Shown here: in pieces, positions 18,400 through 47,395 of the stretch
Layout of the letters: each line of letters starts with the position of its first letter
Numbering within the stretch: the stretch's first letter is position 1
NCBI GenBank assembly: GCA_964365285.1
Contig: CAYIPF010000002.1
Coordinates: forward strand, 1 to 50,290
Reading direction: 5' to 3'
Source of the DNA: an uncultured Candidatus Saccharibacteria bacterium
GTDB taxonomy: Bacteria; Patescibacteriota; Minisyncoccia; Sungbacterales; JBBTQR01
DNA: 50,290 nucleotides
Position numbers and translations under genes: made by a program
Notes under the pieces: model-generated
The model's input: the letters and a program-made list of their open reading frames with translations, nothing else
The model's database searches: none
Told to the model about the DNA's origin: nothing

Positions 18400-18448
18400 A
18401 AAAAAACCGTTCCACTGGATAGACAATTATGCCTATCCAGTGGAACGG
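18400..18448 (-). terminator. rho-independent terminator after the aldehyde dehydrogenase gene
   Basis: Perfect 16-bp stem CCGTTCCACTGGATAG / CTATCCAGTGGAACGG with a 10-nt loop, followed by T7 on the minus strand. It starts 3 nt after the stop codon. Confidence 0.85.
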
Positions 18449-18450
18449 AA

Positions 18451-19890
18451 TTATTGATAACTCACCTGCTTCCAATCGGCATAGAAATCCAAAGCCGCAC
18501 GCCCCGGCTCACGCCATCCGTCTCCAGATACCCCCATACCGCCAAACGACATATGAGATTCAGAACCGTGCGTTGGTCCATTGATACGGACAACGCCCGC
18601 CCTATATAAATTTTCAAACGCTCTTTGTCGTTTATAGTCCTGCGTACAAACAGCACCCGTAAGTTTATAAGCGGAATTATTCGCAAGTCGGACAGCATCA
18701 TCGAATGTTGTTGCGCGATACAAAACCGCAACAGGTCCAAATACTTCTTTGTGAGAAATCGGATCATTTTCCGGAACACCTTCCAAAACCGTTGGCGTAA
18801 GAAAATATCCGACTCCGTCGTTTAGGTTATATAAATTCGTCCCCCTCACCGCGACAACAGCCCCGCGCGAAACAGCGCCAAAGATATCCTGCTCGATTTC
18901 CACCAAACGCTTTTCGCTGATAATGGCGCCATAATTATCCGAATCAGCTGTGCCAACTTTTAATCCCCTTACAAGTTCAATAAACTTATTTTTGAATGTA
19001 TCATACACTCCGTCCATAACAATAATACGACTGGCGGCGGCGCACCTTTGCCCGCCGTCAATAAACGCCGATTGCACAGCAAGCTCCGCCGCGCGATCAA
19101 GATCGGCGTCATCACAAACAACAAATGGATTTTTTCCGCCACCTTCGGCAAGCATCTTCGCGTCCCGTTCAACGGCCTCTCTTCGAATGCGCTTTGCCGT
19201 AGCGGACGAACCGGTAAAACTGATAAATCGAACCCGTTGATCATGAACAAGCGGTAATCCAACTTCATTACCAAATCCCTGAATAACTGAAAAAACTCCC
19301 GCCGGCACGCCAGCATCCTTAAGAACCGTTGCAAACCATATCGGAACATACGGAGCATACTCGTGCGCCTTCAATACAACAGCGTTTCCGCATAAAAGAG
19401 CTGGAAACGATTTCCACGCAACTCCAGCGAGCGGATTATTGAAGGGCGTGATAAGCGCCCCAACTCCAATTGACTGGCGCACATAAAACACCCGCCTTCC
19501 GGGAACTCCGCTTTGCAAAATATATTCGCCGAGGTCTTTTCCGAGTTCAGAAATAAATCGCCCGCATTCAATTGTTGCCTCAACTTCTCCCCGCGCACTT
19601 TTTAAAGATTTCCCGCATTCCAACGCTACAATACCCGTCGCCTCATCTTTCCGCGCTTCAAGGAGCTCTGCCGCTTTACGAATAATCTTTCCCCGCTCAA
19701 CGGATGTCATTCGCGACCAGCCCTCATACGCGTATTCTGCCGATGTTATGGCGTCATTCACCGTTCGTTCATTCCCACGCTGAACATCTGCAAGTTTTTT
19801 ACCGGTTGAGGGATCGTTCTTTGTAAACACAGGAAAAGAATAAACACGCTCATTGTAAATCCAGTGCGGTATTGTCTCTGGATACTTCAT
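18451..19890 (-). CDS. NAD(P)-dependent aldehyde dehydrogenase
   Basis: 479 aa. FTGSSATAKRI, EGGGKNPFVV and GQRCAAASR (catalytic Cys region). GGGGG lies 6 nt upstream of the ATG. Confidence 0.85.
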   Translation of the reverse strand: MKYPETIPHWIYNERVYSFPVFTKNDPSTGKKLADVQRGNERTVNDAITSAEYAYEGWSRMTSVERGKIIRKAAELLEARKDEATGIVALECGKSLKSARGEVEATIECGRFISELGKDLGEYILQSGVPGRRVFYVRQSIGVGALITPFNNPLAGVAWKSFPALLCGNAVVLKAHEYAPYVPIWFATVLKDAGVPAGVFSVIQGFGNEVGLPLVHDQRVRFISFTGSSATAKRIRREAVERDAKMLAEGGGKNPFVVCDDADLDRAAELAVQSAFIDGGQRCAAASRIIVMDGVYDTFKNKFIELVRGLKVGTADSDNYGAIISEKRLVEIEQDIFGAVSRGAVVAVRGTNLYNLNDGVGYFLTPTVLEGVPENDPISHKEVFGPVAVLYRATTFDDAVRLANNSAYKLTGAVCTQDYKRQRAFENLYRAGVVRINGPTHGSESHMSFGGMGVSGDGWREPGRAALDFYADWKQVSYQ

Positions 19891-19954: not shown

Positions 19955-19970
19955 CTCATCATGCACAAAT

Positions 19971-20127
19971 AATAAAGCTCCTCGGGGCAGAGCCCCGAGG
20001 TATCGTTGGGACTCGCTTCGCTCGTACAATCGTAGGCCGAAGGCAGACGGCATTGACCTTTGTTCCGCCGTCGCGTCGAGAAAATGTGCGCATACGCACA
20101 TTTTCCTCTCCGCTAGGCGTAATAAAA
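19971..20127 (-). repeat. R-family structured repeat, copy R1
   Basis: 157 nt, differing from R2 by 3 substitutions. Contains three hairpins, including GAAAATGTGCG-CATA-CGCACATTTTC (plus strand) and CCTCGGGG-CAGAG-CCCCGAGG. Lies between the stop of cytidylyltransferase 2 and the ALDH promoter. Confidence 0.9.
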
Positions 20128-24084: not shown

Positions 24085-24100
24085 AACGCATAAAGACTTT

Positions 24101-24257
24101 AATAAAGCTCCTCGGAGCAGAGCCCCGATGTATCGTTGGGACTCGCTTCGCTCGTACAATCGTAGGCCGAAGGCAGACGGTATTGACCTTTGTTCCGCCG
24201 TCGCGTCGAGAAAATGTGCGCATACGCACATTTTCCTCTCCGCTAGGCGTAATAAAA
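24101..24257 (-). repeat. R-family structured repeat, copy R2
   Basis: 154/157 identical to R1 and in the same orientation. It ends 17 nt upstream of the NeuB-2 ATG at 24084. Confidence 0.9.
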
Positions 24258-24401
24258 CTTAGCACGATGTTGTGTCGTCGTCACAATTAGCGAGTACCTA
24301 TTCATTCATGCTTGCATGTTTTTTATAACTTAAAAACCATGCAAAAAGTTTTAGAACAAAGATTTTTGATGCTATACGCATACAATAGTGTAATTTTAAT
24401 T

Positions 24402-24420
24402 AGATCCACTGCACAATTAT
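24402..24420. repeat. solo fragment of the S-element terminal arm
   Basis: AGATCCACTGCACAATTAT matches the start of S-B (AGACCCACTGCACAATTAT) at 18/19 positions and is preceded by TA. No partner arm was found. Confidence 0.5.
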
Positions 24421-28108: not shown

Positions 28109-28197
28109 GTTAATGTAAAGGAACTATTAAGTAGTAGCGCAAATCCTATAACCGTCAACCAGACGCATTTGTTTTAATGAACAACATTGATTACAAT

Positions 28198-28358
28198 AGA
28201 CCTACTGAACAAAGATTTTTCGTAGCGAAATGTTAATATTTTGAGCGAGACGAAGCAAAAATTATGAAGCATATACAGCGTATCTGTTGAATAATTTTTG
28301 CAAAGTCGCAGCCAAGATATTAACATTTCGCTACGAAAAATCTTTGTTCAGGAGGTCT
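28198..28358. repeat. S element, copy A: 161-nt element with 42-nt terminal inverted arms (MITE-like or structured RNA)
   Basis: Arms 28198-28239 and 28317-28358 are complementary at 41/42 positions. The inner 11-bp stem GCAAAAATTAT/ATAATTTTTGC (28255-28265 / 28291-28301) closes a 25-nt loop. TA dinucleotides flank the element on both sides. Confidence 0.9.
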
Positions 28359-28368
28359 AATAATTTCT

Positions 28369-28920
28369 ATGGAAAAAAGAAAATTAAATCTTGGCTGTGG
28401 AACAAACATACGCGTAGGATGGATAAATTTGGATTCTGCAAAGCTTCCGGGTGTTGATATCGCGCATGATATTGAAAAACTTCCACTCCCGTTTACTGAT
28501 AACGAGTTTGAAGAAATTTTATGCCAGGACATCCTTGAGCATGTGGAATATACGCCCATTCTAAAAGAATTATATCGCGTATTGAGTCCCGAAGGCACCA
28601 TAACTATTCGCGTTCCGCATTTTACTTCGAAAAATAATTATATCGATCCCACGCACAAAAAACTCTTTTCAATAAGCACATTTGAATTTTTCATAAAAAA
28701 TTCGCGCCTAAAAAATGAACGCGATTACTATTTCGATTTTGCGTTTTCAAAAATCCATACACGACACATTACCTTTGAACGGTCATCGCGCATTTTTTTC
28801 TATAATCGTTTTGTTGAGTGGTGCATAAACAGAAACGATCGAACACAAGAAATCTATGAATCAACTTTTCTATCCCGCGTTTTTCCGGCTGAAAACATCG
28901 TCATCACGATTGTGAAATGA
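28369..28920 (+). CDS. class I SAM-dependent methyltransferase (only sizeable plus-strand gene)
   Basis: 183 aa. LNLGCGTNIRVGWINLD and LPFTDNEFEEILCQDILEHV...LKELYRVLSPEGTI motifs. AGGAGG at 28350-28355 lies inside the S-A repeat arm. Confidence 0.8.
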   Translation: MEKRKLNLGCGTNIRVGWINLDSAKLPGVDIAHDIEKLPLPFTDNEFEEILCQDILEHVEYTPILKELYRVLSPEGTITIRVPHFTSKNNYIDPTHKKLFSISTFEFFIKNSRLKNERDYYFDFAFSKIHTRHITFERSSRIFFYNRFVEWCINRNDRTQEIYESTFLSRVFPAENIVITIVK

Positions 28921-38419: not shown

Positions 38420-38428
38420 TTCTAAAAT

Positions 38429-38587
38429 AGACCCACTGCACAATTATTTTCGTAACGAAATTTTCATAGTTTGAGCGAGACGGTCTAAACATTCGAAGCA
38501 TATACGGTGTATCTGTTGAGAATGTTTGGCAAAGTCGGAGCCAAACATAGGGAAATTGCAGTAGAACAATAATTGCGTAGTGGGTCT
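38429..38587. repeat. S element, copy B
   Basis: Homologous to copy A and in the same orientation. Shares TTGAGCGAGACG, GAAGCATATAC(R)G(Y)GTATCTGTTGA and GCAAAGTCG(S)AGCCAA. The inner stem CTAAACATTC/GAATGTTTGG and the outer 19 bp of the terminal arms (GACCCACTGCACAATTATT) are paired. TA dinucleotides flank the element. Confidence 0.85.
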
Positions 38588-38619
38588 AAGATAACAAACA
38601 AAACCATAAAATCAAATTC

Positions 38620-38654
38620 AAAAACCGTTCCACAGCATATGTGGAACGGTTTTT
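38620..38654 (-). terminator. bidirectional rho-independent terminator after the TPR gene
   Basis: Stem CCGTTCCACA / TGTGGAACGG with a 5-nt loop, flanked by A5 and T5. Confidence 0.8.
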
Positions 38655-38668
38655 GCTATATTTTTTTG

Positions 38669-43882: not shown

Positions 43883-43959
43883 GTTTTTATTGTGGCTAGT
43901 GAGGAAGATATGAAAACAGAAGTTTTCATATCGACCGAGCGACGACACAAAATTGTACC
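43883..43959 (+). repeat. X repeat, copy X1
   Basis: 77 nt, 74/77 identical to the reverse complement of 47319-47395. Contains the perfect hairpin GATATGAAAAC AGAA GTTTTCATATC. It directly abuts R3. Confidence 0.9.
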
Positions 43960-44012
43960 CCGTTATATTACCTAGCGAAGATCGGGAAGCGGATACAGCA
44001 GTGTGCGCTTCC

Positions 44013-44048
44013 GAGCGAATGCGATGACCGAGCGCGAATGCGATGACC
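44013..44048 (+). repeat. 17-19-nt tandem duplication inside R3
   Basis: GAGCGAATGCGATGACC is followed by GAGCGCGAATGCGATGACC. Confidence 0.8.
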
Positions 44049-44059
44049 GAACGAGAGTG

Positions 44060-44119
44060 AGGAAATACTGAAGCCAGCAGGCGGAACGTAGGAAATACTA
44101 AGGCTAGCAAGCCGAATGT
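44060..44119 (+). repeat. 30-nt tandem duplication inside R3
   Basis: AGGAAATACTGAAGCCAGCAGGCGGAACGT is followed by AGGAAATACTAAGGCTAGCAAGCCGAATGT. Confidence 0.8.
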
Positions 44120-44223
44120 ACGGGAACAAAGGTTAATACCGTCCGCCTTTGGCGGACGATTGTACGAGCGAAGCGAGTTCCAACGATACCTTGGAGCTTT
44201 GCCCAGAGAAGCTTTATATTATT

Positions 44224-45081
44224 TTATTTTTTTAACGAATACATCGCCCATCTCCGATCCCCCGTTCTTTCAATCGCGTCTCGTTTAATAAGCTCGCTGA
44301 GATCGCGTTGTATTGTTTTTTGACCTATATTATTAAAAGACAATGCTATGTCCCTTATGCTTGCTTTGTCCTTTTTACCAAGAACATCGATAATTAGCTT
44401 GTGCCTCTCTGGGGATTTTTTCTGTATTTGATTTTCGTTTACAAATCGTTTTAAATCGTCTATTTTTGAGTGAGTAGGCAAAAATTCATTGCCCGTTTCT
44501 TTACGAATTAGCGATTCCGCTTTCATTGAAACAGAGTGCCGCTCCTGTGGCGCAGAAATTGCTTTTGCATTTTCCTCTCGCAAGAATCCAATTTTTGCTA
44601 CAAAGAAAAATTCTATTTCAGCGTATTCCCGATCTAAAACCTCTATATTAACGGACGATACAAACCGATTTACTCGCGCAAGCAATAAGACGCTTCTCAT
44701 CCCTCTTATTTTAGAAACAATTGACAGGAGCAATTCAAATGAATCACGAAGTGTTACATCGTAGCGTGTGGAATCTCGAAGTATTTCAAATGCCTCCTCG
44801 CGAAGTCGCCCTGCCAATATCTCGCGTTTTGGAAATAACGAAGTTACGCGATACACCGCGTGCGTTATCTCAAATATTTTTTTCTTTAATGCGTCTGATA
44901 AATCTCCTCGTGGCAAAGCCCCGAGGCATCCATCGGAACTCGCTTCGCTCGTACAAACGCGTGGCAAAGCCCGCGCGGTATTGACATTTGTTCCCGTCGC
45001 TTGCTCGGAAGCGTATACTGCTGTATCCGCTTCCCGACCTTCGCTAGGTAATAATTTTTCCTCGTTCATGTCATAAATCAT
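44224..45081 (-). CDS. helical (four-helix-bundle-like) domain plus C-terminal winged-HTH protein; start uncertain
   Basis: 285-aa ORF. C-terminal IRDIALSFNNIGQKTIQRDLSELIKRDAIERTG looks like a DeoR/MarR-type wHTH. The central FEITHAVYRVTSLFPKREILAGRLREEAFEIL resembles four-helix-bundle (23S-IVS-type) proteins. The first ~60 codons are encoded by repeat R4, and no internal ATG occurs before residue ~127. Confidence 0.55.
   Translation of the reverse strand: MIYDMNEEKLLPSEGREADTAVYASEQATGTNVNTARALPRVCTSEASSDGCLGALPRGDLSDALKKKIFEITHAVYRVTSLFPKREILAGRLREEAFEILRDSTRYDVTLRDSFELLLSIVSKIRGMRSVLLLARVNRFVSSVNIEVLDREYAEIEFFFVAKIGFLREENAKAISAPQERHSVSMKAESLIRKETGNEFLPTHSKIDDLKRFVNENQIQKKSPERHKLIIDVLGKKDKASIRDIALSFNNIGQKTIQRDLSELIKRDAIERTGDRRWAMYSLKK
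44904..45054 (-). repeat. R-family structured repeat, copy R4 (inside the 5' end of the 285-aa ORF)
   Basis: Sense strand: TTATTACCTAGCGAAGG, hairpin GGAAGCG/CGCTTCC, GGGAACAAATGTCAATACCG, hairpin GCGGGC/GCC(A)CGC, TTTGTACGAGCGAAGCGAGTTCC, hairpin CCTCGGGG/CCACGAGG. Confidence 0.85.
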
Positions 45082-47224: not shown

Positions 47225-47318
47225 TTATAGTATCATAGAGCGACTTGGGATGCCAGCGAAAAAACTTGCTTTGTTTAAATATTTTTGCGATAACAATGAA
47301 GAGTGCGAAATATAACTG

Positions 47319-47395
47319 GGTACAATTTTGTGTCGTCGCTCTGTCGATATGAAAACTTCTGTTTTCATATCTTCCTAGCTAGCCACAATAAAAAC
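47319..47395 (-). repeat. X repeat, copy X2 (inverted relative to X1)
   Basis: GGTACAATTTTGTGTCGTCGCTCTGTCGATATGAAAACTTCTGTTTTCATATCTTCCTAGCTAGCCACAATAAAAAC. Lies 119 nt upstream of the gyrB start. Confidence 0.9.

Follow-up and report, generated by a model that had tools for sequence, protein, structure and literature searches.

A probable MITE-like transposon family with a covarying hairpin core and 3-bp target duplications in CPR bacteria

What is the repeated, rod-shaped hairpin that occurs twice in this stretch of DNA, a gene for a structured RNA or a mobile element? The window (the whole stretch of 50,290 nucleotides that was analysed) contains two copies of about 160 nt, S-A (28198-28358) and S-B (38429-38587), and a sequence-only reading of the window had proposed either a 6S-like RNA or a MITE of the IS630/Tc1 type. 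In agreement with that reading, both copies lie in the same orientation, on the + strand; they share 84% column identity. Our analysis favours, with a probability of roughly 0.7, a MITE-like non-autonomous DNA transposon that is abundant in CPR bacteria, makes a 3-bp target site duplication, and is mobilised in trans by an IS5-type transposase.

The genes of the window comprise a polysaccharide/cell-envelope cluster followed by gyrB and pheT, and are otherwise only housekeeping and polysaccharide genes; the annotated gene content of the window includes no transposase gene, as had been stated from the sequence. A protein flanking the element is identical to one encoded on an 85-kb Hainich groundwater contig (ERZ1292636 Hain_PNK108_H32_02um_47), and homologues of the neighbouring methyltransferase carry the names Sungbacteria, Kaiserbacteria, Parcubacteria or Patescibacteria, which identifies the host as a CPR bacterium. 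The genes on either side of S-A are divergent, and the ATG of the methyltransferase gene (28369) follows 10 nt beyond the element; S-B has a bidirectional terminator (38619-38655) on one side and, on the other, the start of an opposite-strand gene for an LTD/PKD protein.

S-B has the layout typical of the family. Its left terminal inverted repeat (38429-38447) forms the 5' arm of helix 1 (P1) and pairs with positions 38569-38587, as supported by the fold and by covariation, both sides having changed in 16 of the 18 pairs of this helix. This arm is followed by conserved left block 1 (TTTCGTAACGAAA, 38448-38460; family form TTTCGTNNCGAAA, near-invariant across 109 copies), which is the 5' side of internal loop 1, and by left block 2 (GAGCGAG, 38473-38479), the 5' side of internal loop 2. 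The apical loop (GAAGCATATACGGTGTATCTGTTGA, 38495-38519) belongs to one subfamily only, other subfamilies having different apical domains. On the descending strand, the alignment of copies places right block 2 (GGAGCC, 38537-38542; family form GCAGCC) as the 3' side of internal loop 2 and right block 1 (TTGCAGTAGAA, 38556-38566; family form TTGCAGYAGAAA) as the 3' side of internal loop 1. The sequence of S-A contains left block 1 (TTTCGTAGCGAAA, 28218-28230), left block 2 (GAGCGAG, 28243-28249), an apical loop (28266-28290) and right block 2 (GCAGCC, 28308-28313). We could thus recover the blocks named in the sequence-only reading, namely TTGAGCGAGACG, the 25-nt apical loop, and GCAAAGTCG(C/G)AGCCAA, together with the changes it had listed in the inner stem (U-A to C-G, A-U to C-G, and A-U to U.G); in addition, 1 bp of this stem is deleted in S-B. 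The predicted folds are very stable, at -91.9 kcal/mol for S-A (z = -17.8) and -62.5 kcal/mol for S-B (z = -8.5), with 0 of 200 dinucleotide shuffles as stable in either case, and the family covariance model (R1) scores the two copies at 161.5 and 143.5 bits, respectively.

The near-perfect terminal stem of S-A, in which 41 of 42 arm positions pair, had been noted from the sequence. The pairing is present in S-A, but it is atypical of the family: the right arm (28317-28358) repeats the left arm as its reverse complement, which explains the near-perfect stem, and TTGCAGYAGAAA, retained in S-B and in nearly all other copies, has been lost. S-A, with its 'symmetrised' ends AGACCT...AGGTCT, is an outlier of the family, and we infer that it is a decayed copy in which left-arm sequence has replaced the original right arm. 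Within 28350-28371, the right arm reads CAGGAGGTCT where other copies have CAACAGGTCT, and this variant yields a canonical GGAGG located 12 nt ahead of the methyltransferase ATG (28369). A solo fragment at 24402 had also been reported, and it is a genuine left terminal arm (AGATCCACTGCACAATTAT, 24402-24420), positions 24401-24420 being identical to the S-B arm at 19 of 20 positions when 0 matches are expected by chance. Solo arms of 19 nt are probably deletion remnants, in this case of an S-B-like copy.

Searching for the exact 25-nt apical loop in 185,579 species-representative genomes retrieved 16 loci, 13 of which were in CPR MAGs (one Uhrbacteria MAG alone has 5, and one Saccharibacteria MAG has 3). 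The remaining three loci (L002, L009 and L015) come from co-assembly MAGs with a Gammaproteobacteria label, in which they occupy short contigs of 5.6-14 kb, and point either to mis-binning or to spread beyond the CPR. A metagenome scan with a right-half pattern, chosen to tolerate a distant left half or another apex, matched at least 120 stretches. A covariance model built from 15 copies (R1) recovered about 120 full copies and additional truncated ones. Altogether, CPR/Patescibacteria MAGs and groundwater or sediment metagenomes yielded more than 130 further copies, at unrelated intergenic sites and in either orientation relative to genes. The lineages represented include Saccharibacteria, Uhrbacteria, Falkowbacteria, Sungbacteria-like bacteria and others, with up to 3 copies per 8-14 kb locus and up to 5 per MAG. 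Copies measure 150-240 nt throughout, with no conserved ORF or ORF-sized interior. Viral contigs gave 0 matches to the apical-loop pattern, and three viral matches to the right-half pattern were dismissed as chance hits in GCA-rich coding repeats with no match to the covariance model; phage and plasmid collections gave no match to the element. A search of the literature on MITEs, REPs and structured RNAs of CPR bacteria found no description of such elements.

Some copies depart from the standard form. Five carry insertions of 50-80 nt in the apical domain (L035 11821-12057, L060 799-1021, L037 887-1097, L084 4961-5182 and L070 6866-7060), which are themselves perfect small hairpins and possibly represent a second, smaller element nesting in the apex. 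Two others (L066 3672-3870 and L055 332-531) have an insertion of about 45 nt within the conserved TTTCGT..CGAAA block, with the terminal arms and the rest intact. Deletion derivatives take two forms, solo terminal arms of 19-20 nt that end exactly at the boundary between the arm and block 1, and 'mini' elements in which the two arms are joined with little or nothing between them; they occur at 24402-24420 of the window, L145 1049-1067, L003 5659-5679, L030 4892-4928, L131 6051-6107 and L110 about 169-215. At L003 692-894 and L011 4508-4672, one copy has its right half tandemly duplicated and another is without its left arm; in the latter, a UvrD-like ORF of 1004 aa reads into the element and takes its stop codon from it.

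The boundaries of the inserted unit were examined by scoring all 3-mer registers around the model ends against a permutation control. The best register, AGACC...GGTCT, yields a perfect 3-nt direct repeat in 32 of 108 copies (permutation mean 6.1, maximum 14 in 2000 trials), as compared to only 7 copies for an inverted repeat. Within the AGACC group, 31 of 59 copies have a perfect duplication and 15 more match at two of the three positions, the commonest triplets being AAT (12), ATA (7), ATT (4), TAT (3) and ACT (2); in the GGGGAC group, 8 of 17 are perfect and mostly of the form T-N-A (TAA 4, TTA 2, TCA, CTA). About a quarter of the copies have no recognisable duplication. S-A is flanked by AAT on both sides (28195-28197 and 28359-28361), and S-B by AAT on its left (38426-38428; AAC in a relative) and AAG on its right (38588-38590), a match at two of three positions.

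The TA that had been described on both sides of both copies is therefore part of this 3-nt direct repeat: it consists of the last base of the left triplet and the first base of the element, mirrored at the right end. The register test excludes a TA duplication as well as a terminal TA that would extend the inverted repeat, which measures 18-20 bp. The notion of a non-autonomous mobile element holds, but its assignment to the IS630/Tc1-mariner type fails because the duplication is 3 bp and not TA, with triplets such as ACT, TCA and ATT incompatible with TA. A fixed duplication of 3 bp indicates a staggered double-strand cut. The IS3 and IS30 families, too, make 3-bp duplications. The ends of the S family, G(A/G)NNCTGTTG, are presumably similar to the termini of IS5, IS903 and Tourist elements. 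Targets of 3 bp are described for the IS1031 group within the IS5 family (PMC2516522), and canonical PIF/Harbinger elements, which are grouped with the IS5 family, have 3-bp target site duplications (PMC12730594).

Comparison between genomes shows that the element has moved. Forty pairs of copies are 93-99% identical and have unrelated flanks, including copies at three sites within one MAG. In a relative of the window organism (Hain_H41 contigs / CAYHHZ010000026.1) the gene order is kept, with 87% identity for the methyltransferase and 80% for the TPR protein, and the S-B site (L150) is empty, the spacer measuring 87 nt as compared to 250 nt in the window. When the S-B flank with one AAT (TTTCTAAAATATAACAAAC) is set against the relative (TTTCTAAAACATAGCAAAC), the two align ungapped with 17 of 19 positions identical, and the inserted unit is therefore the whole hairpin including its arms. 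This is the sole empty site that we found, with the third base of the duplication differing across the three compared copies (T, G, C), and no others were found among the fetched loci of the family. The unit of about 159-161 bp (in the AGACC...GGTCT subfamily) thus inserts as a block into AT-rich intergenic DNA and duplicates 3 bp of the target. At the S-A site, the relative has only a 19-nt arm (AGACTTCCTGTTTAAAGAT, L145 1049-1067) after the triplet AAC, equal in extent to the solo arm at 24402-24420 of the window, and the spacer of a more distant relative has kept ACATTTCGCTAC; the insertion at this site is older and has since eroded in the relatives. Logan contigs of about 920 nt that carry the TPR gene (L019-L021) all end inside S-B.

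Alignment of the family revealed an unusual distribution of conservation. On the left the conserved blocks are TTTCGTNNCGAAA and (Y)GAGCGA(R), and on the right TTGCAGYAGAAA and GCAGCC(R)AA, whereas the helix between the blocks is variable, the apical domain is of at least three unrelated types, and the terminal arms occur as TAGACC, AAGACC, GGGGAC, GAGC, GAAC, GAAAC and TGAGATGG. In the 15-copy alignment, 33 of 62 predicted pairs have changed on both sides, and 95.8% of cells are paired, as compared to 32-45% with the partners displaced by 1-3 columns; values this high did not occur in any of 500 shuffles. A larger set of 109 distinct copies, whose two halves were aligned independently of the covariance model, gave the same picture, with at least two Watson-Crick types in 40 of 48 pairs and 91.6% canonical cells, against 40-48% with the partners slid by -1 to -3 columns. 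Covariation is present in every helix of the rod. The sequence-only reading had reasoned that a pure MITE would have conserved terminal inverted repeats around randomly decaying interiors; we observed instead that the interior is the most conserved part and the one with the strongest covariation.

Both internal loops are formed by the same near-invariant asymmetric motif, GA opposite GCA (5'-(R/G)C|GA-3' versus 5'-GCA|G(Y/C)-3'), repeated about 13 bp apart. In TTTCGTNNCGAAA, the base at the third central position is paired with the Y of TTGCAGYAG (A-T 51, G-C 37, G-T 18, A-C 2), and this distant pairing fixes the register of the rod. A local TTTCG-NNN-CGAAA hairpin, which would make a three-way junction, was excluded by this covariation of the central base with the right block across the rod. 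G.U pairs are tolerated and A.C pairs are rare (198 versus 95 in the 109 copies; 350 versus 148 in the comparison of strand folds), and the top (+) strand folds more stably than its complement in 83 of 84 copies (mean -75.0 versus -61.4 kcal/mol). These counts of strand bias and covariation are inflated by shared ancestry from a few master copies and do not represent independent events, but their direction is consistent. They suggest that a single-stranded folded form matters for propagation.

Copies of the family fill tiny AT-rich spaces between genes, and for about half of them a gene begins 0-15 nt beyond one end of the element, with either end used equally. Between co-directional genes, 14 copies are in the sense and 22 in the antisense orientation (p = 0.24). 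Insertions often lie exactly at a stop or start codon: of 141 ends, 25 have an ATG immediately after GGTCT(T/A), as compared to 4.5 expected, and the left junction supplies a TAG or TAA stop to several upstream genes. In the AAGACC subfamily, the adjacency to ATG arises from TAT|G targets, in which the start codon survives thanks to the duplicated triplet. This placement raises the question of whether the element chooses such targets, whether harmless insertions are those that survive, or whether the AGG-containing end serves as a ribosome-binding site.

No recurrent gene, including reverse transcriptase, Y1-transposase and RAYT genes, was found beside the copies; the only cluster of neighbours at distance 0 was an artefact of ORFs that read into the element downstream of a DUF559-like gene. 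Nor did we find an autonomous version, either among the approximately 120 copies or as pairs of inverted repeats with these ends spaced 0.6-3 kb apart in about 1 Mb of fetched loci. Two candidate insertion sequences were rejected, as L061 9593-11046 encloses an FtsA-like cell-division gene, and the ORF within L032 5835-7669 is not a transposase. Two copies flanking a single ORF (L016) had led us to consider an integron attC/cassette arrangement, which we discarded given that copies are dispersed, have no R-box consensus, and make a 3-bp duplication.

These observations fit best with the MITE-like element proposed above. The S family is short and non-coding, with terminal inverted repeats, a fixed target site duplication, a filled/empty polymorphism, and near-identical copies at different loci, as generically expected of MITEs, and its triplets (TAA, TTA and TCA in the GGGGAC subfamily; AAT, ATA, ATT and TAT in the AGACC subfamily) agree with the 3-bp, often TNA, target of the IS5 family. 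We propose that a transposase acting in trans would make a 3-bp staggered cut. The most likely enzyme would be a DDE transposase of the IS5 family (IS1031/IS427-like, the prokaryotic kin of PIF/Harbinger), as judged from the 3-bp WNW duplication and from the terminal motif G(A/G)NNCTGTTG, the IS5-like character of which we assume. Since no autonomous element with matching ends was found, the identity of the transposase family is deduced from just these two features, the length of the duplication and the resemblance of the inverted repeats. The folded single-stranded top strand (DNA, or possibly RNA) may bring the ends of the element together, and its two internal loops may present two putative binding sites for the mobilising protein. 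The absence of an orientation bias relative to genes leads us to place the structural constraint on propagation rather than on a host function at each site. One tension remains in this explanation, as an enzyme that cuts and pastes double-stranded DNA leaves the covariation of the interior and the preference for folding of one strand unexplained. The family would thus be a MITE of bacteria whose structured core is under unusually strong constraint, and one that is apparently undescribed. A more speculative thought, which we hold to be doubtful, gives that core the leading role: what is invariant is not the transposon ends but a folded top-strand module of two internal loops about 13 bp apart, covarying helices and an exchangeable apex. 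This module could be the recognition structure of an undescribed CPR mobilisation system, in which a protein dimer reads a single-stranded DNA or RNA rod yet produces a 3-bp duplication; or else the elements could survive in such highly compact genomes because the rod joins an upstream stop to a downstream start and supplies a ribosome-binding site.

In an unlikely alternative, the element moves through a single-stranded intermediate instead of the classical DDE reaction on dsDNA, either REPIN-like with an HUH/RAYT-type enzyme or SINE-like as a reverse-transcribed RNA, with the double-loop rod as the substrate of the enzyme. This would account for the top-strand-specific fold with its excess of G.U over A.C, the covariation in every helix, the conserved and non-palindromic loop blocks, and the subfamilies, which resemble master-copy evolution; the balanced gene orientations, which imply that selection is not on the local transcript, and the approximately 120 copies devoid of a transposase-bearing version also agree with it. 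However, a direct duplication fixed at 3 bp is what a staggered cut of both strands leaves behind. Target sites are not duplicated by HUH/IS200-type or RAYT systems, and target-primed reverse transcription produces variable duplications and usually 3' tails. Such tails are absent from the copies, and neither a reverse transcriptase nor a Y1-transposase gene recurs near them. REPINs share with the S family a symmetric hairpin repeat, selection on pairing and a presumed single-stranded mode of action, and their mobilising enzyme is a single-copy gene encoded elsewhere; they differ in consisting of REP doublets with a GTAG-type motif and no target duplication, and the arms of the S family are not REP-like. 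With a 3-bp duplication and no recurrent neighbouring gene, we do not count the S family among REPIN/RAYT systems.

Selection could instead act on the host transcript, where the hairpin might serve as an RNase III site, mRNA stabiliser or insulator between the genes of very compact operons, and the ends (AGGTCT, or GGAGGTCT in S-A) as a ribosome-binding site. The proximity of gene starts in about half of the copies, the excess of ATG after GGTCT(T/A), the GGAGG of S-A ahead of the methyltransferase ATG, and the stability of the hairpins formed by both strands (-75 and -61 kcal/mol) are all in keeping with this explanation, which we nevertheless regard as improbable: close relatives differ in the presence of the element, the two orientations are equally common although the conserved features are strand-specific, the GGGGAC and GAGATGG subfamilies have no SD-like end, and the adjacency to ATG is also produced by TAT/ATA targets that overlap start codons together with the loss of insertions that hit genes. 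Least probable, to the point that we give it hardly any weight, is a multicopy gene for a trans-acting RNA, 6S-like or otherwise binding RNA polymerase or another protein. The rod with internal loops and a conserved apical loop, the strong covariation and the top-strand preference do recall such RNAs, and 6S RNA, at about 160-190 nt, is likewise rod-shaped and has an internal bubble; but the gene for 6S RNA is single-copy and has its own promoter, and the central bubble of the RNA resembles an open promoter, none of which is true of the S family. Scanning the window against Rfam gave no family at the gathering score, and both copies, at E values up to 10, matched only generic long-hairpin plant miRNA-precursor models, with no 6S (RF00013 and related) or other bacterial RNA model among them. 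Promoter and terminator patterns at the elements did not exceed chance. An RNA gene would also sit poorly with the numerous copies in a genome, their non-orthologous positions and their target duplications, with the empty site in the relative, and with apical 'bubbles' that are exchanged for unrelated domains in other subfamilies. The 6S hypothesis of the sequence-only reading was thus abandoned.

Among known elements, the S family most resembles the IS5-derived MITEs (IS1031/IS427) and the Tourist MITEs of PIF/Harbinger, which are also non-coding, multicopy sequences of about 160 bp with terminal inverted repeats, A/T-rich 3-bp duplications (TAA, TTA, AAT), presumably ends of the form G(A/G)NNCTGTT, and subfamilies with different inverted repeats. 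Unlike the described IS5-type MITEs, it has an interior more conserved than its inverted repeats, covariation in every helix, two asymmetric internal loops and a top-strand folding bias, and no parent insertion sequence was found for it. The Correia elements of Neisseria and the ERIC/IRU elements of Enterobacteria are likewise intergenic palindromic repeats of about 100-160 bp near gene ends that are co-transcribed as long hairpins, with compensatory changes in ERIC and functional signals in the ends of Correia. The S family has no sequence similarity to either and occurs in different phyla; it is found across many classes of the CPR, with apical domains that can be exchanged while the two internal loops stay fixed, and it duplicates 3 bp where Correia duplicates TA.

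CPR/Patescibacteria have tiny, tightly packed genomes that are usually described as poor in mobile DNA. The near-identical copies inside single genomes, and the occurrence in many lineages, therefore make the S family a marker of recent transposition and horizontal exchange among uncultured organisms. Since it often abuts start or stop codons, one may ask how genomes with intergenic spaces of only tens of bases tolerate a selfish element of this kind. The family breaks metagenome assemblies, and it can inflate screens for 'novel structured RNAs' because it shows textbook covariation, an error that correct filing prevents. The conserved double internal loop provides a handle for finding the mobilising enzyme.

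The window contains further repeats. A second, GC-richer intergenic family that is unrelated to S is present at 19970-20127, 24100-24257 and 44123-44217, with two direct copies that are 98% identical and an inverted partial copy at 86-87%. An 87-nt inverted repeat (43883-43969 / 47309-47395; 95% complementary) brackets gyrB and an HTH ORF of 285 aa, and a 51-nt inverted repeat (43966-44016 / 45003-45053) brackets the HTH ORF alone; the ORFs enclosed by these two repeats contain no transposase domain. Short tandem repeats occupy positions 44010-44120, between the inverted repeats of the gyrB region. Finally, hairpins resembling intrinsic terminators, with the common stem core CCGTTCCAC...GTGGAACGG, are found at 18400-18455 and 38619-38655, and the one at 38619-38655, beside S-B, scores as a terminator in both directions.
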